Shown one piece after another: positions 5,347-42,655 of a DNA stretch of 64,000 nucleotides (its first letter is position 1; the number at the start of each line of letters is the position of its first letter). Both the position numbers and the translations under genes were made by a program. Below the pieces are notes generated by a model. The model had not been told where the DNA came from. It worked only from the letters and a program-made list of their open reading frames with translations, and searched no databases. Source of the DNA: a virus; the IMG/VR virus record IMGVR_UViG_3300045988_126562, one strand, 5' to 3'.

Positions 5347-7145
5347 CACAAGTGATTAGACAGAAGCCTCCCAGACCAGCTAATATGAGTCAGTTAGACT
5401 ATTTATGGACATATTTTGGAGGATACAGTGTATCAGAAGAGGCTTCTACTATTCCTCAAAATGATGTCATTTTAACTGAATCTGCTATAACTAAGTTAAT
5501 TAGTACGTCTGCTGGAGGAGGAATAGTAAAATTAATTTATAGAAATCATCCTACTAATGCAGACTTGATTCAGTTAGTAGGAGCTAATATAGATGGAACA
5601 GAGATAACAGTAGTAGATATGCCAAAAGAGGTACACGTTACCAACTTTGGGTCTAGCGTAGTAACATCTGAAGATATAGATAAAGGATGCCCATTTCCTA
5701 TAGGAACAAATGTTATAGCATTAGTACTAAGTAATGATAAAAGGTTTTACTTTAACTTAGATGCTTATATAGTAGGAAGTGGAATATCTGGAGTAGATAC
5801 TAATACTATTAGGACTAAGGTAGTTAATGGAATTATATCATCTGATCTGAAAATAAAATCTACAAATAATGTAGTAGAAATAAATTCAGATAAAGATGGA
5901 ATATTTGCAGACCTAAAAATCAGCAGCCAAAATACTGGGGTAGTTATAGAAAAACAAAATGATGGTATATCTGCAAAGATCCCATTAAATAATTCCCAGT
6001 ATTTTATAAGATTTCAACAGCTTACTTTATTAGCTTATATGAATATTGAGAACAAAGATCCAGGAATGGTTTATTTCATAACTGATAAGCCTTACATTTA
6101 CTTGGGTGATAAGAGGTATGGAGTAGATATAAATCCAGGAGAAGTTCCAATAGTTTCATTAGTATATGATGCAGATCATATGTTGCTTTCCTATAAGAAA
6201 GCTGATGGCAGTGATATACAACAAATACATATGGGGCCAGTTACAGAAGAAATGCCTGGTATGCTTTCTTCTGAGGATTATGCTGAATTTAAAAAATTTA
6301 GTGAAGCTCTAGAAGGGATTCCTGATGTAAAGGAATATGTTAAACAAGAAACTGATAAACTGGCTATATCTATAGAATATGGTAATCCTGAAAATAACAG
6401 AAGACCACTATATTTAAAGAATAGACTAGGAGAAACACTAAGTACAGTTTGGATAGATGTAGATAATTTCTTAGTAGCGTCCAAAAATAAAATAGCTACT
6501 CAACAGGATGTGGAGGATGCTGAGGCTACTGGAGTGACCAATATTAATGTAGGGGATCAGATACTTATTCAGACTTTAATGAATGGAGATAAAGTTTACA
6601 CTAATTTGAAAGAATTAGTAGACGACTTTGAAGTAGGAAGAACTAAAACCATAACTCTTTCCAAATCTAAAGATAACGTAGTGTATGCTGACTTAAATAT
6701 AATAGACAGCAAAATATTATATGTAACATCTGATGGAGTAGGAGCTAATGCACAGGCATACAGAGAAGGAGGATATATTACTTTATATGGTAAAACTAAA
6801 ACTCAAGACTGTATACTAGGAAAATGGGAAGCTCCGCAAATGGAATTAATAAAAGGAGAGTTTATACCAGAGTACTCGGAAGAATTACTGGTTAGTCCTC
6901 TTTATTTAGATTGGAAAGAATATAATCAGTTTACTAACGCTCCAATAATAGGAAACCCATATTATGCGTTAACATATAAAGAATATACTGATAATCCCTC
7001 AAATATATTATATAGATATTATTGGATTTCCATTAAACCTTTACTTGATAAGGTAGGAATATCTAAAATAGAAGGAAATTTAATAAAAAAAGATAATAAT
7101 AATAACTTATACGCTCTGTTAGAGTGGTCTAATATAACTAATTAA
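5343..7145 (+). CDS. fibre/structural protein
   Basis: 600-aa ORF with an ATGA stop-start overlap upstream and a TAATG overlap downstream. Beta-rich composition, embedded in the fibre gene train. Confidence 0.5.
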   Translation: MTQVIRQKPPRPANMSQLDYLWTYFGGYSVSEEASTIPQNDVILTESAITKLISTSAGGGIVKLIYRNHPTNADLIQLVGANIDGTEITVVDMPKEVHVTNFGSSVVTSEDIDKGCPFPIGTNVIALVLSNDKRFYFNLDAYIVGSGISGVDTNTIRTKVVNGIISSDLKIKSTNNVVEINSDKDGIFADLKISSQNTGVVIEKQNDGISAKIPLNNSQYFIRFQQLTLLAYMNIENKDPGMVYFITDKPYIYLGDKRYGVDINPGEVPIVSLVYDADHMLLSYKKADGSDIQQIHMGPVTEEMPGMLSSEDYAEFKKFSEALEGIPDVKEYVKQETDKLAISIEYGNPENNRRPLYLKNRLGETLSTVWIDVDNFLVASKNKIATQQDVEDAEATGVTNINVGDQILIQTLMNGDKVYTNLKELVDDFEVGRTKTITLSKSKDNVVYADLNIIDSKILYVTSDGVGANAQAYREGGYITLYGKTKTQDCILGKWEAPQMELIKGEFIPEYSEELLVSPLYLDWKEYNQFTNAPIIGNPYYALTYKEYTDNPSNILYRYYWISIKPLLDKVGISKIEGNLIKKDNNNNLYALLEWSNITN

Positions 7146-9136
7146 TGGCACAAGTAACATTTCTTAGAGGATTAAAAGAATTTTATTCATCTGAACGATA
7201 CCCAGGAGCTATTTATTTTTCTACAGATACTAAAGAAATTATAGTAGACGGAGTAGAATATGGATTGGACTTAAATAATCCAGATTTAGATCTAATTACA
7301 TTAGTAGAGTTTATTACTCCTGATACTATTAAGTTTAGAGCTACCAATGGTAATGAAACTATTATTACTTTACCTCCAGCAACTTCCAAATCAAATGGAT
7401 TAATGTCCGCAGAAGATAAAAAGAAATTAGATGCTGTTCTTGAAGGATTTGATCCAGAAGGTCCTTCTGTTCAAGAAGAAATTGATGAGATTAAAGCATA
7501 TACAGTAAACTCTAAGGTAATAAGTGAAAATCCAGTACTTAATGGAGCAGATATTAAGTTAGATGGATACTCTAAAGCTAGTAACGAATCTAGTATAGCT
7601 CCTACTGATACAGTAAACCAAGCTATAGGTAAACTGGAATTAGCTGGAGAAAACACTAGAACTGACTTACAGAATTTTAAAGACACTAAAGGTCAGGCTA
7701 ATGGTTTAGCAACTCTTGATGAGAATGGGAAAATAGATCCATCTCAAATTGACGGAGTAGTAGGACATGTTCTTGGGGTAGAACAATTTGTAGATGCCAA
7801 TCCAGACCCAGTGGAAAATGATAAATATTATTTCAATACTACATCTAAGAAAATTCTTCATGGAGTAGATGGAAGCTGGGTAGAATCTAATCCTCAACCT
7901 CAAATCCTTTACAATAGAAGAGGAGAAGATGAAAACGGACACTCTAATACTCTTTATCGTTGGGATGGAGAACAAATGGTTGCAGTATCTGATCCCATTG
8001 CTATAGGAGAAATTACTGGAACAGCATATGACGGAGCAAAGGGTAAAGCCAATGCTGACGCTATTGCAGCCTTAAAAGAAAATACAGTAAACGGACAAAA
8101 AATTACAGAAAATCCTGTTATTGACGGATCTAATGTATCTCTTACTGGGTATTCTAAACCATCTGCTGGAGGAGCTGTTGCACCAACAGATAAAGTAAAT
8201 GATGCAATTGGCAAGTTAGAATATGATCTTGATACTGCTGAAAGTACATTAGAACAAGCTGTACAAGACATTAATGACTTACAAGAACAGGTAACAACTA
8301 ATAAAGTAGAAGCTGCTGATAAATCTGTAGTAGTTACTCCAAGTGAAGGCCAGAAAACTACTATTAGAGTAAATGTAAAATCTGGAGACAACGCTCTTAA
8401 ATTAGATGCAGAAAACGGATTATATGTTGATCAATCTGCTTTAACTTCTTACGAAGGTAAAGAGGCTATTGTAATAGCTGACAAGGCAGAATCAGAAGGA
8501 GTTAAAGAAATATCATTAAAAATTAATGCCAATGATAAGGTATTAACTCAAGCAGCAGAAGGTTTATTAGCTAACATTAATCTTACTTGGAGCACTGCAG
8601 ATGGATTAAAACTTATAGGTAAAAACTCTACTGAGATAGCATCTATTCCAGCTTCTGACTTTATAAAGGATGGAATGTTACAATCAGTAGAATTAAAGGT
8701 GGCCTCAGAAGATAAACCAATCGGGGAAGCTACTACAGGGACATTTTTAGTATTTACTTTTAATGTAGATGCAGGCTCTAAAGTAATTAATGTAAATGTT
8801 ACTGATTTAATAGATGTATATACAGCTAGCACTGGTATCAAGCTAGAAGGTAAAAACTTTATAGCAGTTATTGATCCAGCCTCCGAAGCATTTTTAACTG
8901 TAGGAGCTGATGGTATCAAGTTGTCTGGAGTTCAAAATGCTATAAGTGCTGCTAAAGCTACTGTAGATGCTTATACTGTAAACGCTAAAGCTATCAGTTC
9001 TAATCCAGTTTTATCTGGAGCTGATATAACCTTAACTGGATATTCAACTGTAGAAGGTGGAGCTGTTGCAGCTACAGATACAATAAATCAAGCAATAAAC
9101 AAATTAGATGATGCCTTAATTTGGCATGAAGCATAA
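7145..9136 (+). CDS. fibre protein with three ~47-aa internal repeats
   Basis: Three repeats: YTVNSKVISENPVLNGADIKLDGYSKASNESSIAPTDTVNQAIGKLE, NTVNGQKITENPVIDGSNVSLTGYSKPSAGGAVAPTDKVNDAIGKLE and YTVNAKAISSNPVLSGADITLTGYSTVEGGAVAATDTINQAINKLD. Fibre-like N-terminus (GAIYFSTDTKEIIV). Confidence 0.65.
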   Translation: MAQVTFLRGLKEFYSSERYPGAIYFSTDTKEIIVDGVEYGLDLNNPDLDLITLVEFITPDTIKFRATNGNETIITLPPATSKSNGLMSAEDKKKLDAVLEGFDPEGPSVQEEIDEIKAYTVNSKVISENPVLNGADIKLDGYSKASNESSIAPTDTVNQAIGKLELAGENTRTDLQNFKDTKGQANGLATLDENGKIDPSQIDGVVGHVLGVEQFVDANPDPVENDKYYFNTTSKKILHGVDGSWVESNPQPQILYNRRGEDENGHSNTLYRWDGEQMVAVSDPIAIGEITGTAYDGAKGKANADAIAALKENTVNGQKITENPVIDGSNVSLTGYSKPSAGGAVAPTDKVNDAIGKLEYDLDTAESTLEQAVQDINDLQEQVTTNKVEAADKSVVVTPSEGQKTTIRVNVKSGDNALKLDAENGLYVDQSALTSYEGKEAIVIADKAESEGVKEISLKINANDKVLTQAAEGLLANINLTWSTADGLKLIGKNSTEIASIPASDFIKDGMLQSVELKVASEDKPIGEATTGTFLVFTFNVDAGSKVINVNVTDLIDVYTASTGIKLEGKNFIAVIDPASEAFLTVGADGIKLSGVQNAISAAKATVDAYTVNAKAISSNPVLSGADITLTGYSTVEGGAVAATDTINQAINKLDDALIWHEA

Positions 9137-9185: not shown

Positions 9186-11627
9186 ATGGCGATTAATAAG
9201 AAATTAATTCACTTTAAGCTTAAGTCTACTTTCGAGTCAGAACTTGAAGCTGGTAATATCCTAGATACTTCCATAGTATTTATACAGGATGCCAATTTAA
9301 TATGGACTCATGGAACTTACTATTGTTTGCCTAAAGATGAGGTATTAATTTCTGAAGGAATTGAACCTACTGATGGACAAGAAATCTGGATAGACTTATC
9401 AGAAGATTCAACTGTCTTTGCAGTAGAAGAAGCTCCAAAGGATGGAAAACAATATGTAAGAGAAAATGGAAAATGGGTTGAAATTCCAATTACAGATTTA
9501 TCAAACTATCTAGCCAAAGATAATACAGAAGAATATACACCTACTTCTAACTATAACCCCGCTACGAAAAAGTATGTGGATGATAATAAGGGAGTAGAAG
9601 AAGCACCTAATGATGGTAAAGCATATATCAGAAAAAATGAATCTTGGGTAGAACATCAAGAACAAGAAGTATATGTAGGTACTACTGAACCATCAATTGA
9701 TTGCGATATTTGGATTAACCCAGAAGACGGAACCATGAAATATAAAAAGGAAGATGGTTCATGGGAGGAAATAGCTGGAGGAGGTGGAATTGGAGAAATT
9801 ACTGAAACAGTAAAAGTAAGTCTTACTTCCAATCAGTCTAATCCCAATTCAGATCTTACTGGTGTAGAAATTACAGTAGAATGTTCAGGTCTTACTAAAA
9901 AGGCTAATTGGGAAGGATCTGAACTTACTTTTAATATTCCACATTCTACAGAATACACAATTAAAGCAGCAGCTGTAGAAGGATATTCTACTCCAGCTGA
10001 TCAATCATTCACAGCAGTTATGGGAGAAACAAGAAATGTATCTGTAGTGTATAATACCACTATAGTGACTGTAAATAAAGCATGTAACCAAACTTCTGGA
10101 TTGGGAGCATCATGTACTGCTGTGGTAAAGTATGATAACACACAAAAGACGCTAAGTTTTAGTAACGCTGATACTAGCAAAACTATTAAGATCCCAACTG
10201 GTAAAAGTTATACTATAACATTTTCAGCTGTAGAAGGATATAAAACTCCTGAAGTTATTTCACAACAAGCTTCTGGAGCTTCTCAATCAGTTACTGGTAC
10301 TTACAAAGCAGAAGTAGTGACTATAACAGTAACTACTAGTGATAGTACTTCTGCCAATGGACAGAAAGTGACTGTAACAATATCAAGTACTCCTACAGAA
10401 TATACTTGGAATGGAGAAGCTATAGTGCTTAAAGTTCCTTTTGACTCTTCTTATTCTGTAGCAGCTGATCAAAAAGCTAATTACTCTACTCCAGCTACAC
10501 AATCATATACAGCTGATAGGGTAAATAGAGATATTACTCTCAATTATGTGTATGCTCCAGCAATAGGTACTATATTCAAAGATTCAGATGGAGCTAATAC
10601 ATTAGAGCAAAATGGAGGAACTGATACCAGCTGGATTAAAGGTAAAAGATGCTTAGTTAAAAAGACTAGCAGTGGAGTGGCTATTTGTTACTTAGATGAA
10701 AATAATTCAGAATTATTCCATGATGGAACTACTGCTGCCAGTTTGGATGGAAGTATGGGACAATGGATGACAGATGTACCTGAATATTATTTCAATGTAG
10801 ACGAATCTACATCCGGAGTTCATGCTTTACAAGTATCGCAATTCCAGCAAGATGGATGGAAACAATCTAGGAGAGTATTAGTAGGAGTAACTGAAGCTGT
10901 AAATGTTAGCAATAAATTATGGTCTAAAAAGGGAGGACAATCTACTGGAAGTTTAACTTCTGTAGTATTTCATAATTATGCTACAGCATTAGGAAGTGGA
11001 TTCGACATTATTGATTATGAAACTCACTGCAAAATAGCTCATTTATTCTATGCTAAATATGCTAACAGGAATCCACAAGAAATGAGTCAATTCGGATATG
11101 GAGAAAATTCATATATCAGAACTATTGGTACTACATCCTCATTAGGTAATAATGATGGAAAAACTTCTACTCAAATTAGTTTCTTAGGTATAGAAGATTT
11201 CTACGGAGGTAAGTATGAATGGATGAGTGGAATACATTCTAATGGCTCTATTTACTATATTTACGATGGATTTGAACCAGATGCAGTTCCTACCGCTAGT
11301 TATCGTACAGTAGATATAGGTGGGTCAGCTAGAAGTGGATATATAAGTAAAGTATATTGGGGCGAACATGGGGATATGATTCCTACAGAAGTAAGTGCTT
11401 CCTCTACTACACATTACTGTGACTGGGGCATTGTGGCTCGTTCTGGTTGGCGTGTTGCTAGGCGCTCTAATAGTTCTACCTATGATAATGGCGGCGTCGC
11501 TTATTTCTATGCTGCTAGTGATTCTGGCGGTTCTGATGCCGCTATCGGCTCTCGCATCCAATATAGAGGGTCTATACAAGTTATAGAAGATCCTGTTGAA
11601 TTTAAATCATTACCAGTAGGATTTTAA
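9186..11627 (+). CDS. DGR target protein: tail fibre / receptor-binding protein with a C-terminal variable region
   Basis: I prefer the ATG at 9186, because the track's TTG start at 9144 lies inside the terminator palindrome. Fibre-like N-terminus. Three ~85-aa beta-sandwich-like repeats (..AVEGYSTPADQSF.., ..AVEGYKTPEVISQ.., ..QKANYSTPATQSY..). The last ~70 codons contain the VR that matches the downstream TR. Confidence 0.85.
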   Translation: MAINKKLIHFKLKSTFESELEAGNILDTSIVFIQDANLIWTHGTYYCLPKDEVLISEGIEPTDGQEIWIDLSEDSTVFAVEEAPKDGKQYVRENGKWVEIPITDLSNYLAKDNTEEYTPTSNYNPATKKYVDDNKGVEEAPNDGKAYIRKNESWVEHQEQEVYVGTTEPSIDCDIWINPEDGTMKYKKEDGSWEEIAGGGGIGEITETVKVSLTSNQSNPNSDLTGVEITVECSGLTKKANWEGSELTFNIPHSTEYTIKAAAVEGYSTPADQSFTAVMGETRNVSVVYNTTIVTVNKACNQTSGLGASCTAVVKYDNTQKTLSFSNADTSKTIKIPTGKSYTITFSAVEGYKTPEVISQQASGASQSVTGTYKAEVVTITVTTSDSTSANGQKVTVTISSTPTEYTWNGEAIVLKVPFDSSYSVAADQKANYSTPATQSYTADRVNRDITLNYVYAPAIGTIFKDSDGANTLEQNGGTDTSWIKGKRCLVKKTSSGVAICYLDENNSELFHDGTTAASLDGSMGQWMTDVPEYYFNVDESTSGVHALQVSQFQQDGWKQSRRVLVGVTEAVNVSNKLWSKKGGQSTGSLTSVVFHNYATALGSGFDIIDYETHCKIAHLFYAKYANRNPQEMSQFGYGENSYIRTIGTTSSLGNNDGKTSTQISFLGIEDFYGGKYEWMSGIHSNGSIYYIYDGFEPDAVPTASYRTVDIGGSARSGYISKVYWGEHGDMIPTEVSASSTTHYCDWGIVARSGWRVARRSNSSTYDNGGVAYFYAASDSGGSDAAIGSRIQYRGSIQVIEDPVEFKSLPVGF
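11421..11557 (+). repeat. DGR variable repeat (VR)
   Basis: Aligns to 11688-11824 at a constant offset of 267 nt with no indels. In the part I counted (VR 11424-11557 vs TR 11691-11824, 134 positions) about 29 of 31 mismatches fall where the TR has A. Encodes WGIVARSGWRVARRSNSSTYDNGGVAYFYAASDSGGSDAAIGSR. Confidence 0.85.
11562..11576 (+). promoter_or_regulatory. short hairpin immediately 3' of the VR (candidate DGR target-recognition hairpin)
   Basis: tataga-ggg-tctata forms a 6-bp stem with a 3-nt loop. It begins 5 nt after VR/TR homology ends. Confidence 0.4.
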
Positions 11628-11687
11628 ATAAATAGATTAACAGGTCTGCCCGAAGCTAATGTAGGTAACATCCTCTGTTAAAATAAA

Positions 11688-11824
11688 AAACAGAGCAATG
11701 TAGCTAATTCTAGTTGGCATGTTACTATACGCTCTAATAATTCTACCAATGATAATAGCAGCGTCACTTATTTCAATGCTAATAATGATTCTAGCAATTC
11801 TAATACCAATATCAGCTCTCACAA
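11688..11824 (+). repeat. DGR template repeat (TR), non-coding
   Basis: Lies in the 326-nt gap between the target stop (11627) and the RT start. Read in the VR frame it is rich in AAT/AGC/ACT codons (..SNVANSSWHVTIRSNNSTNDNSSVTYFNANNDSSNSNTNISSH..). The 5' boundary is uncertain and may extend to about 11681 through an A-run. Confidence 0.85.
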
Positions 11825-11953
11825 TATTGTTCATTTTTTTTTCACTTTGTATTTTAGTAGGGCTGCACCTTGCCTCTTGGCAAAAGATAGAATGCATTTT
11901 TTAAAAAGTATGGTAGCTGATTAGCGAAGTGCTTTATTGCAACAATAGTGCTT

Positions 11954-13183
11954 ATGAAAAGAATAAATGGTTTATTTGATAAAATATGTACAGAAGAAAA
12001 TATACTCTTAGCTTACAGAAATGCTACTAGAGGTAAGAAACACTACAAAGATGTAATAGCTTTCAATAAAGATTTAAAAAATAATTTGAAAACTCTTCTA
12101 ATAGAGTTAAAAACACTAACTTATAGAACATCTCCATACTATATATTTAATCTAAAGACTGGAGGCAAAGTTAGAGAAATTTATAAACTTCCCATAAGAG
12201 ATAGAATAGCACAACATGCTCTTATGAATTATATGGAACCAATATTTAGAAAATCTTTTATAGTAGACACATATTCATCTACTAAAGAAAGAGGAATCCA
12301 TATGGGATTAAGGAGGTTAACTAAGGCATTAAAGGATAAAAAAAATACTGTATACTGTTTAAAATTAGATATACATAAATTTTATCCTTCCATTAATCAA
12401 GAACTTATGAAAGCTGCACTAGCCCGTAAGTTTAAAGATAAAAGACTTTTGATAATACTAGAAGAAATAATAGACTCCACTGATAAAGGAGTCCCTATTG
12501 GAAATTATACTTCTCAATATTTTGCTAATTTCTTTTTAACTCCAATGGATCACTGGATAAAAGAAGTTCTAAGAGTTAAATACTATTTTAGATATTGTGG
12601 TGATATAGTTATATTAGGTCCAACAAAAGAATATCTATGGAACATATTTCATAAGATACAGGACTATTTAAAGGATATACAATTAGAATTGAAACCAAAC
12701 TGGCAGGTATTTCCAGTAGAATCTAGAAGTGTAGACTTTTTAGGATACAAATCTAGGCATGAATATATACTTGTTAGAAAATATATCAAAAAGAACTTTA
12801 TTAATAAACTAAGACAGAGCAATACATTTGAATCCAAAAGAAATATTTTAGGCTCATATTGGGGGATTTTTTGTCATGCAAACTGTCGTAATCTATGGAG
12901 AACATATACCGGAATGAGAACCTTCAAGGATTTAGGAATTGAAGTTAAAACCCGTGTTAGAGTACCTGACATAGTAGATAAGATTATAATAATTAATAGC
13001 ATGAAAGTCAAGTTTAAAAGAGGTAATAAATGTGTTGATATTTCAGCTACTTATGAAGATAGAGAGATTAAGTTTACTACATTTGCTGAAATGATTATTG
13101 AAGCAGCTGAGCAGATTAGTAACTCAGATTTACCTTTTGAAACTAAGATAATATCAGAAAATGGATTTTACAAATTTGAATAA
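11954..13183 (+). CDS. DGR-type reverse transcriptase
   Basis: RT motifs are present: LKLDIHKFYPSI (motif A); PIGNYTSQYFANFFL (the DGR-specific GxxxSQ motif B); FRYCGDIVILG (motif C, non-canonical YCGD); LELKPNWQVFPV..VDFLGY (motifs D/E). I prefer the ATG at 11954 over the track's GTG at 11948. Confidence 0.9.
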   Translation: MKRINGLFDKICTEENILLAYRNATRGKKHYKDVIAFNKDLKNNLKTLLIELKTLTYRTSPYYIFNLKTGGKVREIYKLPIRDRIAQHALMNYMEPIFRKSFIVDTYSSTKERGIHMGLRRLTKALKDKKNTVYCLKLDIHKFYPSINQELMKAALARKFKDKRLLIILEEIIDSTDKGVPIGNYTSQYFANFFLTPMDHWIKEVLRVKYYFRYCGDIVILGPTKEYLWNIFHKIQDYLKDIQLELKPNWQVFPVESRSVDFLGYKSRHEYILVRKYIKKNFINKLRQSNTFESKRNILGSYWGIFCHANCRNLWRTYTGMRTFKDLGIEVKTRVRVPDIVDKIIIINSMKVKFKRGNKCVDISATYEDREIKFTTFAEMIIEAAEQISNSDLPFETKIISENGFYKFE

Positions 13184-13184
13184 C

Positions 13185-14156
13185 ATGAGAATATTAAAAG
13201 CAAGTAGCACTTTAAAACCTCAACTGCTTGAATACATTGGTTCTGGTTCTTGGAGAGTTAGATGGAATATATCTAAAGAACAAAAGGAAGAAGCAGAATT
13301 ATATGAGTATGTAGAAGCAGAATTAGGATATAAAGCTGCTATTGAAGAATTAAAAACCATAGTAGTAAACTGGGTAAGAGATAACTTCCAACCTAATTCT
13401 TTTTATATAGATGGACATAAGTATTGGGCATCTGATGCAGAAAGAGCAACTATTAAGTCTCAATGCGAGTCTGATGCAGAAAATTCTACTATTTCTCTTA
13501 CTTGTGATGATTCTATAATTACTTTAAAAGCTCAGTCAGTATTACGAGTAATGATGATGATAGATAATTATAGTATCAAATATAAAAAAGTAGTAGAAAC
13601 TTTAGTAAACGAAATTAATCAATGTTCTACTATAGAAGAAATAAATGAGTTGAATTTTAAATTAGAATTGCCAGAAGAAGTTCATACTACTCAGGTGGAA
13701 TTAGGAAGATTAACAAGTAACAGACAAAAAAACTCTAAAGAGAATCAAGCTATACTATTTGCTAAAATGACTATAAATGCAACTCCACTCACTGATAACC
13801 AAGCTATTAGTGTAAAGAACTTGCACCCTGAGTGGAAGGAATTTATAGGTAAATCTTTATCTACTGGATTTAGAGTTTTGCATGAAGATGCTTTATACAA
13901 AGTAAGGCAAGATATTAGTGTAGTGTTAGAAAATCAACCCCCATCTATAGATACTGCTGCATTGTATGAAGAAATTAATGAAACTCATGATGGGACAAAG
14001 ACAGACCCAATACCATACAACAACAATATGGCTTTAGAATTAGGAAAATATTACATCCAAGATGATATTATATATATGTGTACTAGAGATACAGGTCAAG
14101 CAGTCTATCAAGATTTATCTGACTTAGTAGGAATTTATGTACAAATAGCAGAATAA
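13185..14156 (+). CDS. hypothetical protein, paralogue 1 (shared C-terminal ~125-aa domain, possibly carbohydrate-binding)
   Basis: ATG at 13185 lies 1 nt after the RT stop; an alternative ATG at 13161 overlaps the RT. The C-terminal region FAKMTINATPLTDNQAISVKNLHPEWKEFIG...LVGIYVQIAE is closely similar to the next gene. The W..F.G..V.....LYKV.Q...PS pattern loosely resembles CBM5/12-type modules. Confidence 0.55.
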   Translation: MRILKASSTLKPQLLEYIGSGSWRVRWNISKEQKEEAELYEYVEAELGYKAAIEELKTIVVNWVRDNFQPNSFYIDGHKYWASDAERATIKSQCESDAENSTISLTCDDSIITLKAQSVLRVMMMIDNYSIKYKKVVETLVNEINQCSTIEEINELNFKLELPEEVHTTQVELGRLTSNRQKNSKENQAILFAKMTINATPLTDNQAISVKNLHPEWKEFIGKSLSTGFRVLHEDALYKVRQDISVVLENQPPSIDTAALYEEINETHDGTKTDPIPYNNNMALELGKYYIQDDIIYMCTRDTGQAVYQDLSDLVGIYVQIAE

Positions 14157-14159
14157 AAT

Positions 14160-14717
14160 ATGGCAGTAATTAAATATAAAAATCCGAAATACACAGAGGG
14201 TGGTTCAGAACCTAAGTATATAGTTATTCCTACATTAACTATGGAAAATAATGGATTGACTAAATATAAAAATGGAGAATCCTGGGAAGATTTGGTTCCA
14301 GAAATGCAATTAATGTCATTTGCTAAAATGGCTGTAAATACTATGAGCCTTACAGATGAACAGGCTTTAAGTGTTAAATTACTTCATCCAGAATGGGAAG
14401 AATTCATAGGAGGATCTCTATCAGCAGGAGAAAGGGTTATGTATGATGATAAGCTATACAAAGTAAAACAAGAGATAAACCCAGTACTAGAAAATCAGCC
14501 TCCATCTATAGAGACAGCAGCTCTATACGAAGAGATAAATGAAAAACATGCTGGTACTAAAGAAGATCCAATTCCATTCAATAATAATATGGAATTAGAA
14601 CTTGGTAAGTACTATTCTCAAAATGGAGTAACTTATATGTGTTTCAGAGATTCACAACAACCAGTTTATCAGAATTTAGCTGATTTAGTTGGAATCTATG
14701 TACAAATAGCTGAGTAA
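14160..14717 (+). CDS. hypothetical protein, paralogue 2 (same C-terminal domain)
   Basis: FAKMAVNTMSLTDEQALSVKLLHPEWEEFIG...LVGIYVQIAE. Its last six residues (YVQIAE) are identical to those of the upstream gene. Confidence 0.6.
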   Translation: MAVIKYKNPKYTEGGSEPKYIVIPTLTMENNGLTKYKNGESWEDLVPEMQLMSFAKMAVNTMSLTDEQALSVKLLHPEWEEFIGGSLSAGERVMYDDKLYKVKQEINPVLENQPPSIETAALYEEINEKHAGTKEDPIPFNNNMELELGKYYSQNGVTYMCFRDSQQPVYQNLADLVGIYVQIAE

Positions 14718-15585: not shown

Positions 15586-16425
15586 ATGAGAAGAAGAACT
15601 CTTGGGTCTAAGAAATTAGTAGATAAAGAGATAAGATTTACCTCATCTACTAGTTGGACTATACCAGCTGGATGTAAATCAATAGATATATTTTTAGTAG
15701 GCGGTGGAGGAGCCGGGGGAAATTGGGTAACTTGGGGCTATACTTCAGGAGGACCTGGAAGTGGAGGTGGAACTAACACAGTCAAAAACATCTCTGTAAT
15801 ATCGGGTCAGTCAGTTTCTATTTCTATTGGAGCAGGAGGATCTTCTGTAAGTTCCGATGGATCTCCCTCTACCTTAACAGTTAATAATAACACATATACT
15901 GCTCCAGGAGGAAATGGAGGACCTCAATCTAGAAACGGATTACCTAATGATGATCCATACAATTATTGTTATGTAACGTGTGCAGCTAGTCCAGCTAACA
16001 ACGGAATATATAGAAACTCAGGGATAATAGGAGTGGGTAAAAATGATGGTACTACTATAGAATATGTAAAAGATGACAGAAATGTAGAGTTAGACTCTTA
16101 TGATAGGTCTATTTATGGTACAAATTCTAGTACTACTGGAGACAATCCTTATCGCTATAGAACTGGTGTACCAGAATTTTGGGAGGATGATAAACCTCTT
16201 CATGCAGCCGGAGGTTCTAATAGTCAATCTTTACAAATAATATCTGATTTCACAGAAGGATCTGGAGAAACTGTTACTAGACATTACAATAGTGGTGATA
16301 ATGGTATCCAACGTGGCGGAGGAGGATATGGAGGTGGGGGAGCAGGAGTAACATATAGCTCTTCCAAATCATTTAGTTCTGGAGGTAGTGGTATAGTAAT
16401 AATACGATATAAAGCTTATGAATAA
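15586..16425 (+). CDS. fibre-cassette member B: glycine-rich domain protein
   Basis: N-terminus MRRRTLGSKKL. The layout ..WTIPAGCKSIDIFLVGGGGAGG.. followed by GG-rich blocks and ending GGSGIVIIRYKAYE matches the phage/bacterial glycine-rich domain family. Confidence 0.75.
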   Translation: MRRRTLGSKKLVDKEIRFTSSTSWTIPAGCKSIDIFLVGGGGAGGNWVTWGYTSGGPGSGGGTNTVKNISVISGQSVSISIGAGGSSVSSDGSPSTLTVNNNTYTAPGGNGGPQSRNGLPNDDPYNYCYVTCAASPANNGIYRNSGIIGVGKNDGTTIEYVKDDRNVELDSYDRSIYGTNSSTTGDNPYRYRTGVPEFWEDDKPLHAAGGSNSQSLQIISDFTEGSGETVTRHYNSGDNGIQRGGGGYGGGGAGVTYSSSKSFSSGGSGIVIIRYKAYE

Positions 16426-20414: not shown

Positions 20415-20798
20415 ATGGAATTACTATTAAAAAGGATTTTTAAAGGACCTCAATATACTATAGGCAAACTTTATATAAATGGTAAATACTTCTGTGATAC
20501 CCTAGAGGATGTTGTTAGAGAAACTAAGATACCTAATGAAACCGCTATACCGCCTGGTACGTATAAAGTAATAGTTAATATGTCTCCTAGATTTAAAAGA
20601 CTTTTACCCAGACTTTTAAATGTTCCAGGATTTGATGGAATCCTTATACACAGAGGAAATACCCCATCTGATACATCTGGATGTATATTAGTTGGAGAAA
20701 ATAAAGTAAAAGGGAAAGTAATAAACTCTACTCCATATGAAAAAAAGCTAGTAGAGATTTTAAAAGATGAAAATGATATATCTATAACCATAGAGTGA
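20415..20798 (+). CDS. DUF5675-like / YkuD-like (His..Ser-Gly-Cys) small protein, candidate cell-wall-active enzyme
   Basis: TIGKLYINGKYFCDTLED..AIPPGTYKV..LLNVPGFDGILIHRGNTPSDTSGCILVG matches my recollection of the DUF5675 family. The H-x11-SGC spacing resembles the L,D-transpeptidase-fold catalytic motif. Confidence 0.55.
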   Translation: MELLLKRIFKGPQYTIGKLYINGKYFCDTLEDVVRETKIPNETAIPPGTYKVIVNMSPRFKRLLPRLLNVPGFDGILIHRGNTPSDTSGCILVGENKVKGKVINSTPYEKKLVEILKDENDISITIE

Positions 20799-29663: not shown

Positions 29664-30341
29664 ATGGTATTTGAAAAACTTTCTTCTGCAATATTTAATG
29701 ATATAATATCAGGCTTAAGAGGATATGCTTCTAATATATCCATGTCTTTAGAGCAACTAGAAGATGATATTGTTGATGAGAGGTTGCAGATAATAAAGGA
29801 ATATTTTATTAAAGGACTGGTTCCAAGAAGGGATTTAATGCTATCTCTTAATTGTGTAGAGCTGGATTGTGAATCTATGGACAGGTGTAGGTGTGGCAAA
29901 ATGAGTGATTGTGATGAATTAGTGGCACACTTTGAAATACCCCAGATATTAGGTGATTTCGGATCAGAAGCTATAGATTATATAGGTTCCACAGATAGAC
30001 AAGTTCCATTTATAGTATATACTAGTCCTCAATTCTGGAGGTATAGGAAATATAGAAAAAGAGGTAAAAATAGACCTTATGTTTTTATAGACACTACTCC
30101 TAATAAAAATAATATGTATGATTGTTTTGTCTTTAACGCACCACTTCTTAAACAAATTTCAGTAGTAGCTATATTTAAAGATCCAAGACAGTTAGAACAT
30201 TATGGATGTTGCCCAATAGGAGATATAGACAATTTTACCTTTATAAATAATGAAATAAAAAGAAGATTAACAGAAAAGAAGATTCGTTATTACCGTCAGT
30301 TACAACCAGTTCCAACCATTAATGATCAAGTTAACAGATGA
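29664..30341 (+). CDS. hypothetical structural-module protein (Cys cluster CVELDCESMDRCRCG)
   Basis: 225-aa ORF with an ATGA overlap with the next gene. Confidence 0.55.
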   Translation: MVFEKLSSAIFNDIISGLRGYASNISMSLEQLEDDIVDERLQIIKEYFIKGLVPRRDLMLSLNCVELDCESMDRCRCGKMSDCDELVAHFEIPQILGDFGSEAIDYIGSTDRQVPFIVYTSPQFWRYRKYRKRGKNRPYVFIDTTPNKNNMYDCFVFNAPLLKQISVVAIFKDPRQLEHYGCCPIGDIDNFTFINNEIKRRLTEKKIRYYRQLQPVPTINDQVNR

Positions 30342-31027
30342 ATGATTTTAATTATATATATACTATGGCTAATTCTCTATATGGCTTAGAACTAGAACCC
30401 GAAGAATTTGAGGAATTAGGACTTGTAGCTTGGAATTTAATAGGGAATAAGACTGTAAGATTATACAAGTATTGTTCTAGAATATCTTGCGAGGACTTAT
30501 CTATTAAACTTCCCTGCAACTGTGATATAATAGAAGCAGTGACTTACAATCACGAAGATTGGAACTATAGCACTAATAAAACAGTCAATGGAGATTATAA
30601 CTCTCAGTTTACTGAACAATATATAGAAGCTAGGAAGTTATATCCTAATCCATTATACGTAAGTGGTAAATATGCTAAATATGAAAGGGTAGGAGATATT
30701 CTATATTTTGATAGGGACTATGGACAAGTAACAATACTATATAAAGGAGTTATTTTAGATGAAGATGGACTACCCCAAGTAACAGAAAAGGAGGCATTAG
30801 CTATATCCACGTATATAGCCTTTGCCAAAAAGCAAAAACAAGGGTGGATTACTAATAATCAAAATTTAATTCAAATGGCTCAATATTTGTATCAACAATG
30901 GCTTAAGTATTGTGATTCCGCAAGAGTTCCTATAAGCATTAGCCAGAATGAGATGAATGAGATTCTTGAAGCTAAATCTAGATGGGATAGGAAGATATTT
31001 AATAAGGCATATAAACCTGTTAAATAA
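30338..31027 (+). CDS. hypothetical structural-module protein
   Basis: 229-aa ORF. Confidence 0.55.
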   Translation: MNDFNYIYTMANSLYGLELEPEEFEELGLVAWNLIGNKTVRLYKYCSRISCEDLSIKLPCNCDIIEAVTYNHEDWNYSTNKTVNGDYNSQFTEQYIEARKLYPNPLYVSGKYAKYERVGDILYFDRDYGQVTILYKGVILDEDGLPQVTEKEALAISTYIAFAKKQKQGWITNNQNLIQMAQYLYQQWLKYCDSARVPISISQNEMNEILEAKSRWDRKIFNKAYKPVK

Positions 31028-40811: not shown

Positions 40812-42096
40812 TAAATATAAATCTAGAAAGAGACCTCCCTTAGTTAGAAAAGCTCAGGGAGGACTTTCTCTTCCTGCATATTATGGAGTCACTGGTGATA
40901 TTACTTCATTAAATAATGATTTACAACAGTATGCTAAAAGCGCAAATGTATTAAATTCGATAGCATCTTCAGATAAAGCTAAAGGATTGACTACATTTTT
41001 TGGTAAAGCTGGGGCTTTAGGTAAAGCTAACAACACTCTGTCTAAATCTGTGGGAGGAATACAAGGTATGCCCAGTATGGGAGGGTTAGCTACATCTGCA
41101 CTTAGTGTGGCAGATAAATTTATTCCACAAGCAGAGGATAAAGGTAGTAAAATTACTAGTGGAGTATTTAATGGCCTTAGTCAAGTAGCAGGAATGATAC
41201 CTGGTGTAGGAACAATAGCATCAGTTGCTTTAAAAGGATTGGGAACTTTATTTGGGGCAGGTGTGAAAAGTGTGAAAGGTAACGCTGCTGACGAAATGGT
41301 AGACACTTCTTCATCATATACAGGAGCTGATGCTTATGATTCAAAAAGATTTGGATTACTAGGACTAGGCTCAGCAAAAAAATATCAAAAGAAGGTAGAT
41401 AAAAGGCAATGGGAAAGAGATACAGCTCATGACATACTACAAGAAGGAAAAGACGACCTACTGGCTTCATCCAATGTGCAGCAACTGCAATTAGTTGACA
41501 ACTTAAATAAAAATGCTAGTGATTGGATGTACAATATAAGAGCTGGAGAGTTTGGAATGAAAATAAAAGAGGCAAAGAGGTTATCTAGATTAGCAAAGAA
41601 AAAAGTATCAATATCTGGAGAGCCTAGAAAAATCGGAACCACTGAACTTCGGGAAGGGGGAAATATACCAAAGAATACCTCTATGAGTAGTGTAGAGTCT
41701 TCTACAGAGATTTCTCTTACTGGGGTGAAGCAACAATACCAGGAAGGTGAAAGTGGTCAGCAAGCTCCTGAAATATTCCAAAATGGAGGTCAAGTAAATA
41801 TTATACCAGAAGGAGCATTACACGCTAGAAAACACAACCTAGTGGAGCTAAATCCTGAATTGGAAGGTATAACTAAAAAGGGTATCCCAGTAATAACTCA
41901 GGAAGAAGGAGGAATTGTACAGCATGCAGAAATAGAACGTTCTGAAATAATATTTGCTAAAGAAATAACTGATAAATTAGAGGAATTGAGAAATATAGGT
42001 ACAGATGAAGCTGCTATAGAAGCAGGTAAATTACTGGCCGAACAGATAATAGAAAATACTATTGATAATACTGGAGAATTATTGCATGATAGTTAA
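40804..42096 (+). CDS. Gly/Ala/Ser-rich virion protein, candidate internal/ejected (cargo) protein
   Basis: Basic N-terminus followed by low-complexity G/A/S-rich segments (GKAGALGKANN.., GMIPGVGTIASVALKGLGTLFGAG). Overlaps the upstream gene by 8 nt. Confidence 0.4.
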   Translation: MHNKYKSRKRPPLVRKAQGGLSLPAYYGVTGDITSLNNDLQQYAKSANVLNSIASSDKAKGLTTFFGKAGALGKANNTLSKSVGGIQGMPSMGGLATSALSVADKFIPQAEDKGSKITSGVFNGLSQVAGMIPGVGTIASVALKGLGTLFGAGVKSVKGNAADEMVDTSSSYTGADAYDSKRFGLLGLGSAKKYQKKVDKRQWERDTAHDILQEGKDDLLASSNVQQLQLVDNLNKNASDWMYNIRAGEFGMKIKEAKRLSRLAKKKVSISGEPRKIGTTELREGGNIPKNTSMSSVESSTEISLTGVKQQYQEGESGQQAPEIFQNGGQVNIIPEGALHARKHNLVELNPELEGITKKGIPVITQEEGGIVQHAEIERSEIIFAKEITDKLEELRNIGTDEAAIEAGKLLAEQIIENTIDNTGELLHDS

Positions 42097-42655
42097 AATA
42101 AATGATAAAGAGTATAGAGTTAAAATAGCTTATACTGATGAGGAAAAATCCAGAGGCTTGCAGGGAATAAATTCTTTACCAGAGGATGAAGGTATGTTAT
42201 TTGTATATGATGAACCTCAAACGGTTGGGTTTTGGATGGATGATACTAATATTCCATTAGATATAGTCTTTATAGACGATGATGAAGAAGTATTATCTGT
42301 ATATTCTGGAGAGCCTAATGATAGAACTATAGCAGAGGAAGATAATGTAAAATATGTACTAGAAGTCAATCAAGGCTCTGGAATTAAAGAAGGAGACGAG
42401 ATTGACATAGAAGAAGAGGAGGATGATTCCGAAACCTCTAAAATGTTAGTGATTGGGCCAGATGGAGGAGTACAAATGGAATTAGAAGGAGGAGAAAGAA
42501 TTGTTTCTAGAAGAGAGACTAAAATATTAGTAAAAAAGGCTAAAAAAGCATATAATTCTGAATTAGATTCTGATTACAAATCTTTAGGAAAATATATGTT
42601 TAAAGTGCTAAACAAACAGGATAAGCGTGAGCCTGAATATGTGGAACAAGAATGA
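42086..42655 (+). CDS. DUF192-like protein with an acidic C-terminal extension
   Basis: VKIAYTDEEKSRGLQGINSLPEDEGMLFVYDEPQTVGFWMDDTNIPLDIVFIDDDEEV matches the DUF192 signature (..GLm....l....GMlF.......fWM.nt..pLDi.f.d). The ATG at 42086 overlaps the upstream stop. Confidence 0.55.
   Translation: MIVKINDKEYRVKIAYTDEEKSRGLQGINSLPEDEGMLFVYDEPQTVGFWMDDTNIPLDIVFIDDDEEVLSVYSGEPNDRTIAEEDNVKYVLEVNQGSGIKEGDEIDIEEEEDDSETSKMLVIGPDGGVQMELEGGERIVSRRETKILVKKAKKAYNSELDSDYKSLGKYMFKVLNKQDKREPEYVEQE

Follow-up and report, generated by a model that had tools for sequence, protein, structure and literature searches.

An Avd-less diversity-generating retroelement in a distant crAss-like gut phage and the polymorphism of its reverse transcriptase at catalytic residues

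The virus record IMGVR_UViG_3300045988_126562 of IMG/VR is a stretch of 64,000 nucleotides (nt), called the window in the following, which holds between positions 9,186 and 13,183 a tail-fibre gene, a pair of imperfect repeats and a reverse transcriptase (RT) gene. From the sequence alone these parts had been read as a complete diversity-generating retroelement (DGR) aimed at the C-terminus of the fibre. The locus raises the question whether this reading is right, and also what is to be made of an RT which has lost the first aspartate of its catalytic box. We have little doubt about the first point: the region is a compact DGR without the accessory protein Avd, as found in Bacteroidales-associated gut phages, and it resides in a distant crAss-like phage, where it diversifies the tip of a fibre. 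This kind of element is already known and the phage group has been described recently. What goes beyond the original prediction is a second variable repeat at a remote site, a spacer RNA resembling the Rfam family RT-17 in an Avd-less cassette and, foremost, a polymorphism of the catalytic residues of the RT. The parts needed for the argument are these:

9186 to 11627, plus strand: DGR target, a tail-fibre protein of 813 amino acids (aa), with likely start ATG 9186 (the listed open reading frame, ORF, begins at TTG 9144).
11425 to 11557, plus strand: variable repeat (VR1), codons ~761 to 805 of the 827-codon ORF, ending 70 nt before the stop codon.
11692 to 11824, plus strand: template repeat (TR), non-coding and adenine-rich, with 46 A in the 134 nt counted from 11691.
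11954 to 13183, plus strand: DGR RT of 409 aa, counted from ATG 11954 (the listed ORF begins at GTG 11948).
12494 to 12517, plus strand: PIGNYTSQ within the RT ORF, the GxxxSQ motif typical of DGR RTs.
12593 to 12604, plus strand: catalytic YxDD box, TAT TGT GGT GAT, read as Y-C-G-D; A12600G changes the first catalytic Asp to Gly.

The two repeats were compared base by base with software. TR 11691-11824 and VR 11424-11557 align over 134 ungapped positions at an offset of 267 with 31 mismatches, which reproduces exactly the hand alignment of the original prediction. TR adenines account for 29 of these mismatches (22 A>G, 4 A>T and 3 A>C); put differently, 29 of the 46 TR adenines are mismatched and only 2 of the 88 other TR bases (Fisher p = 2.8e-15), so that the proposed enrichment at adenines is borne out. 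The two non-adenine mismatches are TR 11691 (C versus T) and TR 11728 (T versus G), the same two that had been named before. An independent repeat search recovered the pair as the direct repeat D1 (11428-11556 and 11695-11823, 129 nt, 79% identity, spacing 267). The C/T difference at 11424/11691 is constant in all 11 VR1 alleles of the same species, and therefore the demonstrable homology of VR and TR begins at 11425/11692; it stops at 11557/11824. The predicted pair, 11421-11557 and 11688-11824, was thus right in its position and offset, and its start has to be moved inwards. In the reading frame of the target the TR comprises 12 AAT, 5 AGC, 2 ACT and 2 ACC codons, in agreement with the earlier remark on its richness in AAT, AGC and ACT, and its adenines occupy the first, second and third codon positions 24, 18 and 2 times. 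With this codon design mutation to a stop is possible at no codon, and the number of proteins that can be reached is ~10^25. When both strands of the 64 kb were scanned with any base allowed at TR adenines, VR1 was the sole copy: it agrees with the TR at 86 of the 88 non-A positions, compared with 41 of 88 at the runner-up site.

Searches by pattern and by protein brought together many contigs of this species, whose identity to the window is 97-99.9%. Wherever one of these loci contains the TR, its sequence is the same. Of the 46 columns with a TR adenine, 33 are polymorphic in a set of 11 distinct VR1 alleles, compared with 4 of the 88 others (p = 1.6e-16), and hence the variation in natural populations is concentrated where the original prediction had proposed to look for it. 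The window and locus L023 show 0 differences in 2,524 flanking positions and 19 in VR1, located at adenine columns. Similarly, L020 and L027 differ at 0 of 4,137 background positions and at 18 positions in VR1, and L001 and L012, both of which carry the RT substitution R275K, at 1 of 4,157 and again at 18. As judged from these pairs of sequences, the turnover of VR1 is much faster than that of the genomic background. Many contigs terminate within VR1 or TR, as would happen where one sample contains several versions of the VR. At eleven TR-A columns all 11 VR1 alleles have G, which points to scaffold residues. The VR1 allele of L019 has a deletion of 3 nt (one codon) relative to the TR and its target protein has 812 instead of 813 aa. 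Taken at the level of these contigs, the data from natural populations demonstrate ongoing diversification by the element in this phage species.

The start of the target at ATG 9186, as originally predicted, is supported by the gene callers on 10 related contigs, which give products of 812-813 aa. The protein matches PHROG 5302 'tail protein' (E = 2.7e-34) and phrog_14959 (E = 1.3e-39), and it can be divided into three parts:

9420 to 9659, plus strand: two foldon-like motifs (Pfam Fibritin_C), EAPxDGxxYVRxxGxWVE, ~171 nt apart.
9786 to 10575, plus strand: three diverged repeats of ~85 aa (...YxIxxxxVEGYxTPxxQSxTA...), seen at the DNA level as the repeat families D2, D4, D5 and D6.
10635 to 11627, plus strand: C-type-lectin or FGE-like ligand-binding domain bearing VR1, assigned from a structure model and Foldseek.

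The Fibritin_C match covers two stretches (E = 2.1e-8, 34.6 bits), with which the DNA repeat D3 (9422-9482 and 9593-9653) coincides, and the motifs are probable trimerisation elements of the fibre. The three repeats which follow had been described as Ig-like. Three diverged repeats are indeed present; as to their identity, Pfam returned only sub-threshold matches to beta-sandwich adhesin families (Cna_B 0.025, DUF7601 0.016, DUF5979 and MucBP), and a BLASTP self-comparison of the target gave no hit for them. They are possibly beta-sandwich or Ig-like domains. The last 330 aa, for which a structure prediction had been suggested, were modelled by AlphaFold2 with a predicted local distance difference test score (pLDDT) of 95 and a predicted template-modelling score (pTM) of 0.93. 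Foldseek placed the model closest to TaqVP (PDB 5vf4, E = 3.3e-12, probability 1.0, TM 0.52), followed by PvdO, Mtd of the phage BPP-1, FGE and TvpA; this is the C-type-lectin or FGE-like fold that had been anticipated. In the databases the C-terminal 330-aa module has 221 homologues. VR1 lies within the C-type-lectin fold of a protein with tail-protein matches, in accordance with a DGR aimed at the C-terminus of a tail fibre. The target is a tail fibre, probably a trimeric one, which ends in a C-type-lectin domain akin to TaqVP.

The RT gene follows the TR after 129 nt. It most likely starts at ATG 11954 rather than at GTG 11948, because the resulting 409 aa correspond to the length of all database homologues. 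PIGNYTSQ had been recognized as the DGR-specific motif, and in the alignment of the RT family G185, S189 and Q190 of this motif are invariant. The RT domain matches Pfam RVT_1 (3.6e-17) and phrog_1423 (1.9e-107). Its best solved relative is PDB 8ub7 (328 aa), matched over the full length with E = 4.9e-44, which we take to be the Bordetella phage RT (bRT) from its length and its label 'Reverse transcriptase'; the match to a group II intron RT has E = 5.5e-14. The RT adjoining the TR thus falls in the DGR clade, its match to 8ub7 being better by ~30 orders of magnitude in E-value. The best-scoring NCBIfam model is a group II RT, at 108 bits against a cut-off of 300, and the retron and defence RT models are far under their cut-offs. 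By these cut-offs the protein is neither a group II intron RT nor a retron RT, affinities which the original prediction had singled out for checking. Past the end of 8ub7 the RT has a C-terminal extension of ~85 aa that is present in many relatives including the Hankyphage RT; at least 5,559 homologues were found, many of them of 410-425 aa. In nine relatives, namely cr52_1, Hankyphage and seven others, the same architecture is found: a target, a gap of 265-515 nt holding the TR, and the RT, with no Avd annotated. Each of the nine has its own A-biased TR/VR pair.

At the catalytic box the RT of the window reads F-R-Y-C-G-D, where the family consensus, the species consensus and most strains have YCDD. 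The first Asp of YxDD is invariant, as all 40 aligned family homologues read YCDD. The copy in the window lacks an intact YxDD box, and this bears on its function and not on the kind of element. The statement that the DGR is complete stands insofar as all parts are present; with its catalytic Asp replaced by Gly, however, the RT may not work alone.

RT alleles were sampled from the 90% identity cluster of full-length proteins, which comprises 241 members. In contigs the unmutated YCDD allele occurs 79 times, R275K 30 times, YCGD 17 times and an allele reading CCGG 8-9 times. The exact YCGD protein of the window is present on at least 17 contigs (21 contigs read), with NCBI, JGI, ENA and Logan as sources. 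CCGG is nested in YCGD; all three adenines of its box are changed A>G and no Asp is left in motif C. We considered sequencing error as the cause of YCGD and CCGG and rejected it, since contigs of different projects carry precisely these alleles, YCGD on 17-21 and CCGG on 8-9 of them. An altered box is found in 7 of the 19 distinct RT alleles (alleles at least 98% identical). The variants seen are YCGD, HCDD, YCDG, YCND, CCDD, YCDN and CCGG, and elsewhere in the protein S109F/P, P145S/L, R275K/G, R74K and R113K. Of the 41 substitutions within the species 26 fall on the 104 family-conserved positions (the most conserved 25%; binomial p = 3e-7) and 9 on the four residues of the box (p = 2e-10). 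This excess at conserved sites is the reverse of the pattern of purifying selection. Truncated or frameshifted alleles were not found among the alleles read, though sampling from a cluster of full-length proteins could miss them.

The linkage of these alleles to VR1 is also informative. A12600G is present on at least two synonymous backgrounds. Genomes with YCGD and the linked synonymous markers carry at least 7 VR1 alleles on backgrounds with almost no divergence. CCGG and YCGD genomes share identical VR1 alleles, such pairs differing only at two extra box positions, and four VR1 backgrounds were each found in both states; several of the pairs derive from adjacent runs within the same projects. 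Self-mutagenesis of the box by the DGR seems unlikely because the window contains no donor or template copy of the RT box and because the nucleotide changes among the RT alleles include all transition types and not A>N alone; the fact that all three CCGG changes are A>G keeps it conceivable. Left to itself, the RT of the window probably has reduced activity or none. The recent turnover of VR1 among YCGD genomes then has to be explained by an activity that is left in the enzyme, by wild-type phages which complement it during co-infection or by RT alleles recombining onto other VR1 backgrounds, and parallel mutation within hosts is a further possible source of the combinations of RT box and VR1.

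Between the target and the RT three further features are located:

11668 to 11701, plus strand: stable hairpin (CUCUGUU-9 nt-AACAGAG, extended by an outer stem) spanning the 5' edge of the TR.
11834 to 11842, plus strand: poly-T run directly 3' of the TR, of strain-dependent length (T9, T8, T7, T6); the TR itself is invariant.
11866 to 11957, plus strand: structured spacer RNA similar to Rfam RT-17 (RF03020), found by cmscan and ending at the RT start codon.

As DNA the hairpin folds with -6.5 kcal/mol (z = -5.1; 0 of 200 shuffles equally stable), and hairpins of unrelated sequence are found at the equivalent position in four more distant cassettes (L038, L039, L043 and L044). It may serve as the terminator of the target gene or as a boundary of cDNA synthesis. 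The whole fold of TR and spacer is no better than that of shuffled sequences (z = +0.2); in this region terminator-like sites were not found and promoter-like sites are at chance level. Since the length of the T-run varies among strains, an exact spacer pattern gave zero matches in IMG/VR. The RT-17 match extends over the entire model with 27.9 bits (E = 0.001-0.004). Full-length matches were also obtained in cr52_1 and in four of the seven further relatives (L040, L041, L042 and L043), so that six cassettes including the window have the element, and in all six it lies at most ~20 nt upstream of the RT start codon or overlaps it. Hairpin 1 shows compensatory changes, with G-C exchanged for A-U (4 versus 4 sequences) and U-A for C-G, and in hairpin 2-3, a nested second element, the pairing is kept despite the changed sequence. 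In BPP-1 an RT-10 RNA has been placed between TR and RT by Weinberg et al. (PMC5737381), and the RT-17-like spacer is a candidate counterpart of the BPP-1 spacer RNA that would organise or prime reverse transcription.

Several observations speak against a working DGR of the usual kind and have to be accounted for. The RT-17 scores are under the Rfam gathering score of 40.4 in every cassette (27.9 bits in the window and 26.8-33.7 bits in the five relatives). No gene for an Avd or HRDC accessory protein is present in the window: Pfam gave no Avd match at E <= 1 for the flanking genes and all free small ORFs of the 64 kb, PHROG and NCBIfam scans of the neighbours and the free small ORFs were likewise empty, and in the 9 relatives with a visible gap between target and RT no Avd is annotated or called there. 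The absence of Avd is usual in this clade. Two ORFs which overlap a TR, an antisense one of 86 aa in the window (11637-11897) and one of 99 aa in L043, are taken as spurious. There is also no GC-rich initiation of mutagenic homing (IMH) site like that of BPP-1 and no GC run at the 3' end of VR1, and the hairpin 3' of VR1 is not significant (z = +0.26; +0.84 for the 3' flank of the second variable repeat, VR2). The target signals of BPP-1, (GC)14 plus a 21-bp IMH with a hairpin or cruciform behind it, are defined for the BPP-1 subgroup only (PMC3240598). Target recognition must therefore differ from that in BPP-1, the only well-studied model. In 4 of the 11 VR1 alleles and in the more distant L015, the T of TR 11728 is replaced by G (VR1 11461), which is not adenine mutagenesis; the change converts Ile, Met or Leu codons to Arg (AGG or CGG), and the simplest guess is selection for Arg acting on rare non-A errors. 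Finally, the RT of the window is without its catalytic Asp, yet VR1 varies among genomes with this same allele, and it can be called neither simply active nor simply dead.

Could the locus then be no DGR at all? If the 3' part of the fibre gene had merely been duplicated in tandem and had diverged, and if the RT next to it belonged to a retron or a group II intron without relation to the repeat, a bare repeat and an RT would be seen as well, and the top NCBIfam model is, at a score far under its cut-off, a group II RT. This is contradicted by the 29 of 31 mismatches at TR adenines, by strain variation at TR-A columns in two separate targets (VR1 and the remote VR2 described below) with an invariant TR, by the RT being nearest to 8ub7, taken as bRT, with an E-value that is ahead by 30 orders of magnitude, by the C-type-lectin fold of the target and by the architecture kept in nine relatives with A-biased TR/VR pairs of their own. 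The mismatch, population, RT, fold and architecture tests thus refute a chance neighbourhood of repeat and RT, to which we give practically no credence.

Having settled on a DGR, we are left with different views on the state of its RT. We come near to giving an even chance to a cassette which in the window is switched off, the D>G change having killed the RT, so that VR1 of this lineage would no longer be altered by the element itself. The VR1 diversity among YCGD and CCGG genomes would date from wild-type genomes and would have become joined to null alleles that recurred or were carried along by recombination in gene-specific sweeps; selection would favour the loss of hypermutation in a phage which has already arrived at a good fibre tip. 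The invariance of the first YxDD Asp in all 40 family members argues for this, and the same holds for the change of YMDD to SMAA, which inactivates bRT and serves as its standard dead control (PMC12875486, PMC3240598). Decay of the RT is known in other crAss-like DGRs (PMC11054128). Among the alleles, 7 of 19 have an altered box and the substitutions pile up on conserved sites (26 of 41) and on the box (9 of 41), A12600G has appeared on at least two synonymous backgrounds, and CCGG, with no Asp in motif C, shares VR1 alleles with YCGD, as if VR1 had been frozen after inactivation. What does not fit is the clade with YCGD and two linked synonymous markers, in which up to 19 adenine differences in VR1 are seen against zero in the background (window versus L023). 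A dead RT would require recombination that is frequent and confined to very short tracts, or else assistance in trans. Moreover, the four VR1 backgrounds in both the YCGD and the CCGG state call for repeated identical double mutations or short gene conversion, and the set of full-length proteins, in which disrupted genes could be missed, yielded no truncated or frameshifted allele. Alternatively, the YCGD enzyme might be working or attenuated, the remaining Asp and the flexible Gly being sufficient, and the variants would tune the rate or spectrum of mutagenesis instead of being nulls. The persistent turnover of VR1 among genomes with YCGD and its linked markers agrees with this, as does the wide distribution of YCGD on 17-21 contigs from NCBI, JGI, ENA and Logan. 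The other recurrent changes are conservative ones at invariant residues (R275K on 30 contigs, R74K and R113K), and L001 and L012, which share R275K, differ at 18 VR1 positions against 1 of 4,157 in the background. However, in the RTs of retroviruses, group II introns and telomerase it is the first YxDD Asp that coordinates the catalytic metals, and its replacement abolishes polymerisation. The step to CCGG strips every acidic residue from the box, and changes at invariant residues look like loss of function and not like tuning. We regard a working or attenuated YCGD enzyme as unlikely. A broader interpretation is that in this phage species the DGR RT is under recurrent selection, with independent substitutions at catalytic and other invariant residues whose alleles arise again or reach many VR backgrounds by recombination, acting as off or attenuation switches in an antimutator-like manner, or else that an RT without its first Asp is still homing; we offer it tentatively and would sooner doubt than endorse it.

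For a DGR with these parts, the first two steps may be outlined by analogy with BPP-1. The non-coding TR would be transcribed together with the spacer, which would fold into the RT-17-like RNA, probably along with the RT mRNA. The RT, positioned by the spacer RNA, would copy the TR into cDNA and misincorporate nucleotides opposite template adenines. What follows is shown by the comparison of sequences: VR1 at the 3' end of the fibre gene is replaced by the cDNA, and up to 44-46 positions are rewritten, nearly all of them at the first or second base of codons of the AAT, AGC and ACT types, with no stop being possible. Eleven of the TR-A columns stay G in VR1.

The TR appears to serve more than the fibre. 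An adenine-degenerate TR pattern matched a second site, VR2, in six loci (L002, L003, L006, L007, L009 and L010), which corresponds to TR 11729-11817. In two of these the ORF has the following position:

L007, 4619 to 5176: VR2 ORF encoding a protein of 184-185 aa.
L010, 13509 to 14063: VR2 ORF, likewise of 184-185 aa.

Two VR2 loci are found on the same contigs, of 145.6 kb and 176.5 kb, as VR1 and TR, at a remote site and on the opposite strand; no DNA is shared between the VR2 loci and the window. Polymorphic columns in VR2 number 21 of 32 at TR adenines and 0 of 58 at the others. In related genomes of the same species, going by this pattern, one TR is feeding both VR1 and the remote VR2. 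Remote second targets of DGRs are known in Bacuni phages (PMC8143477). The VR2 ORF adjoins an HNH-like gene and small ORFs in a neighbourhood that does not look structural. Its protein family is narrow and hypervariable solely in the segment RLRSxxSxxxxGGVxxFxxxxxSGxSxxxxGFACRS; a structure model had pLDDT < 50 in the VR part, and no PDB match was found. The VR2 protein may be a DGR target with a role other than virion receptor binding.

How does the element compare with known systems? The closest description is the one given for crAss-like phages of the zeta group in the human gut (PMC12386605), which have genomes of 155-190 kb with 28-37% GC and a DGR in the block of structural genes. Their RTs have GxxxSQ, are nearest to Intestiviridae and Suoliviridae RTs, reach 414 aa and vary in their C-termini; Avd is absent except in two phages; and the targets are tail fibres with a C-terminal C-type lectin, some with Ig-like domains. 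Compared by description, the window agrees with each of these traits. Term searches of the same paper returned no report of a remote second VR in an Avd-less element, of a spacer RNA motif or of RT active-site polymorphism.

With BPP-1 (mtd-VR-avd-TR-brt), the mechanistic prototype, the element shares the adenine-specific transfer from TR to VR, the location of the VR, which occupies the 3' end of the gene for a receptor-binding protein of C-type-lectin fold, and the RT, homologous over the full length to 8ub7, taken as bRT (E = 4.9e-44). It differs in the lack of avd, of (GC)14 with a 21-bp IMH and of any hairpin or cruciform of significance behind the VR (PMC3240598), in the ~85 additional C-terminal aa of the RT, in the long fibre with foldon-like motifs, in an RNA that is RT-17-like and not RT-10 and, at the level of the species, in the second remote target. 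Among Suoliviridae and Intestiviridae DGRs (e.g., cr52_1 and crAssphage LMMB) are the closest named RTs, those of cr52_1, cr50_1 and cr10_1, with 46-48% identity; cr52_1 also has an RT-17-like RNA abutting the RT start. The RT coding sequence of cr52_1 (L017, NC_055888.1, 4001-5026) contains 6 in-frame stops under table 11, which implies stop-codon recoding. The RT of Hankyphage (Bacteroides phage p00) is 32% identical to that of the window in an alignment including the C-terminal extension; at the place of the RT-17-like RNA, however, Hankyphage has an RT-3 spacer RNA (145 bits). These Suoliviridae and Intestiviridae phages and Hankyphage belong to other families than the phage of the window, with genomes of 42-104 kb and ~23% head-protein identity. 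The epsilon crAss-like phage crAssE-Sib (OR575929; PMC11054128) has the order fibre-VR-TR-RT, no Avd, TaqVP 5VF4 as best target match and a similar size class, but its RT is 24% identical and has GxxxSP, and its target and head proteins are without BLASTP similarity to ours. For these reasons (24% RT identity, no BLASTP similarity of target and major capsid protein, GxxxSQ and not GxxxSP) an affiliation with the epsilon group, Epsilonunovirus, was rejected. TaqVP of Thermus aquaticus (PDB 5VF4) has the C-type-lectin or FGE-like fold with the VR near the C-terminus as in our target; in contrast to the latter it is a free-standing bacterial protein and not the tip of a phage fibre, and the sequence identity is 15-16%.

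The phage itself had been called crAss-like. Its head protein matches Pfam PF23898 Crass_capsid with 55.6 bits (cut-off 27, E = 4e-15), and two neighbouring ORFs match ring proteins:

30338-31027: CrAss_Ring_1, 34.9 bits (cut-off 27).
29664-30341: CrAss_Ring_2, 21.3 bits, under the cut-off, directly upstream of the CrAss_Ring_1 ORF.

With Crass_capsid and CrAss_Ring_1 above threshold the assignment is upheld, as a distant relationship: by tblastn the named matches of the head protein, unclassified gut-phage records aside, are Crassvirales major head proteins with 22-24% identity. Closer relatives of this protein (57-75% identity) are found in two human-gut genomes of ~120 kb. A megablast search with the cassette found no near-identical phage in GenBank, and no TerL gene was found in the window. 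The window has ~31% GC, no tRNA genes and a long block of virion genes followed by four giant ORFs on the opposite strand (42705-63887, minus strand; 1493, 978, 3181 and 1408 aa). The last of these has superfamily 1 (SF1)-helicase-like AAA domains at aa 142-482, and the other three gave no sequence match in PHROG, Pfam or PDB. Neither the head protein nor the giant ORFs gave a sequence match to the solved structures of crAss001 and phi14:2; the giant ORFs were compared with a view to the giant virion-packaged RNA polymerase and cargo proteins of crAss-like phages. The host of the element is thus a large, distant crAss-like gut phage with relatives of 145-181 kb, in which the DGR lies within the virion-gene block. 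By description alone it fits the published zeta crAss-like group (proposed Echekviridae).

The surroundings of the cassette deserve a few remarks. The two genes after the RT, 13161-14156 and 14160-14717, are paralogues with a common C-terminal domain of ~135 aa (phrog_30034) and form a DNA repeat of ~72% identity. Gene content at this place depends on the strain: L001 has an additional 2.3 kb, L019 and L020 have a gene of 597 aa, and L021 and L029 one of 199 aa. Upstream of the target, 7145-9136 is a repeat-rich ORF of 663 aa with head-fibre-like PHROG matches, within which both the 145.6-kb and the 176.5-kb contig end; this suggests strain heterogeneity or a repeat that breaks assembly. Other domains in the virion block are Gly_rich_2 (15586-16425, 4e-19), DUF5675 (20415-20798, 3e-33) and DUF192 (42062-42655, 3e-26).

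With an invariant TR, two targets and dozens of VR alleles on near-identical backgrounds, this phage species offers a clean natural system. The lack of Avd together with a conserved RT-17-like RNA makes it a useful contrast to BPP-1 for cDNA priming and target recognition in Avd-less DGRs. If the RT polymorphism reflects selection to stop or slow hypermutation, a machinery for evolvability would be regulated by mutation in the wild, and this would be directly visible; if the off-switch alleles are real, DGR detectors that work from a list of parts would overestimate the number of active elements. If, on the other hand, the YCGD enzyme is active, a textbook assumption on RT catalysis would be challenged. 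Either way, should switch alleles or homing without the Asp turn out to be true, the mutation rate of a diversity generator would be evolving visibly in human gut populations.

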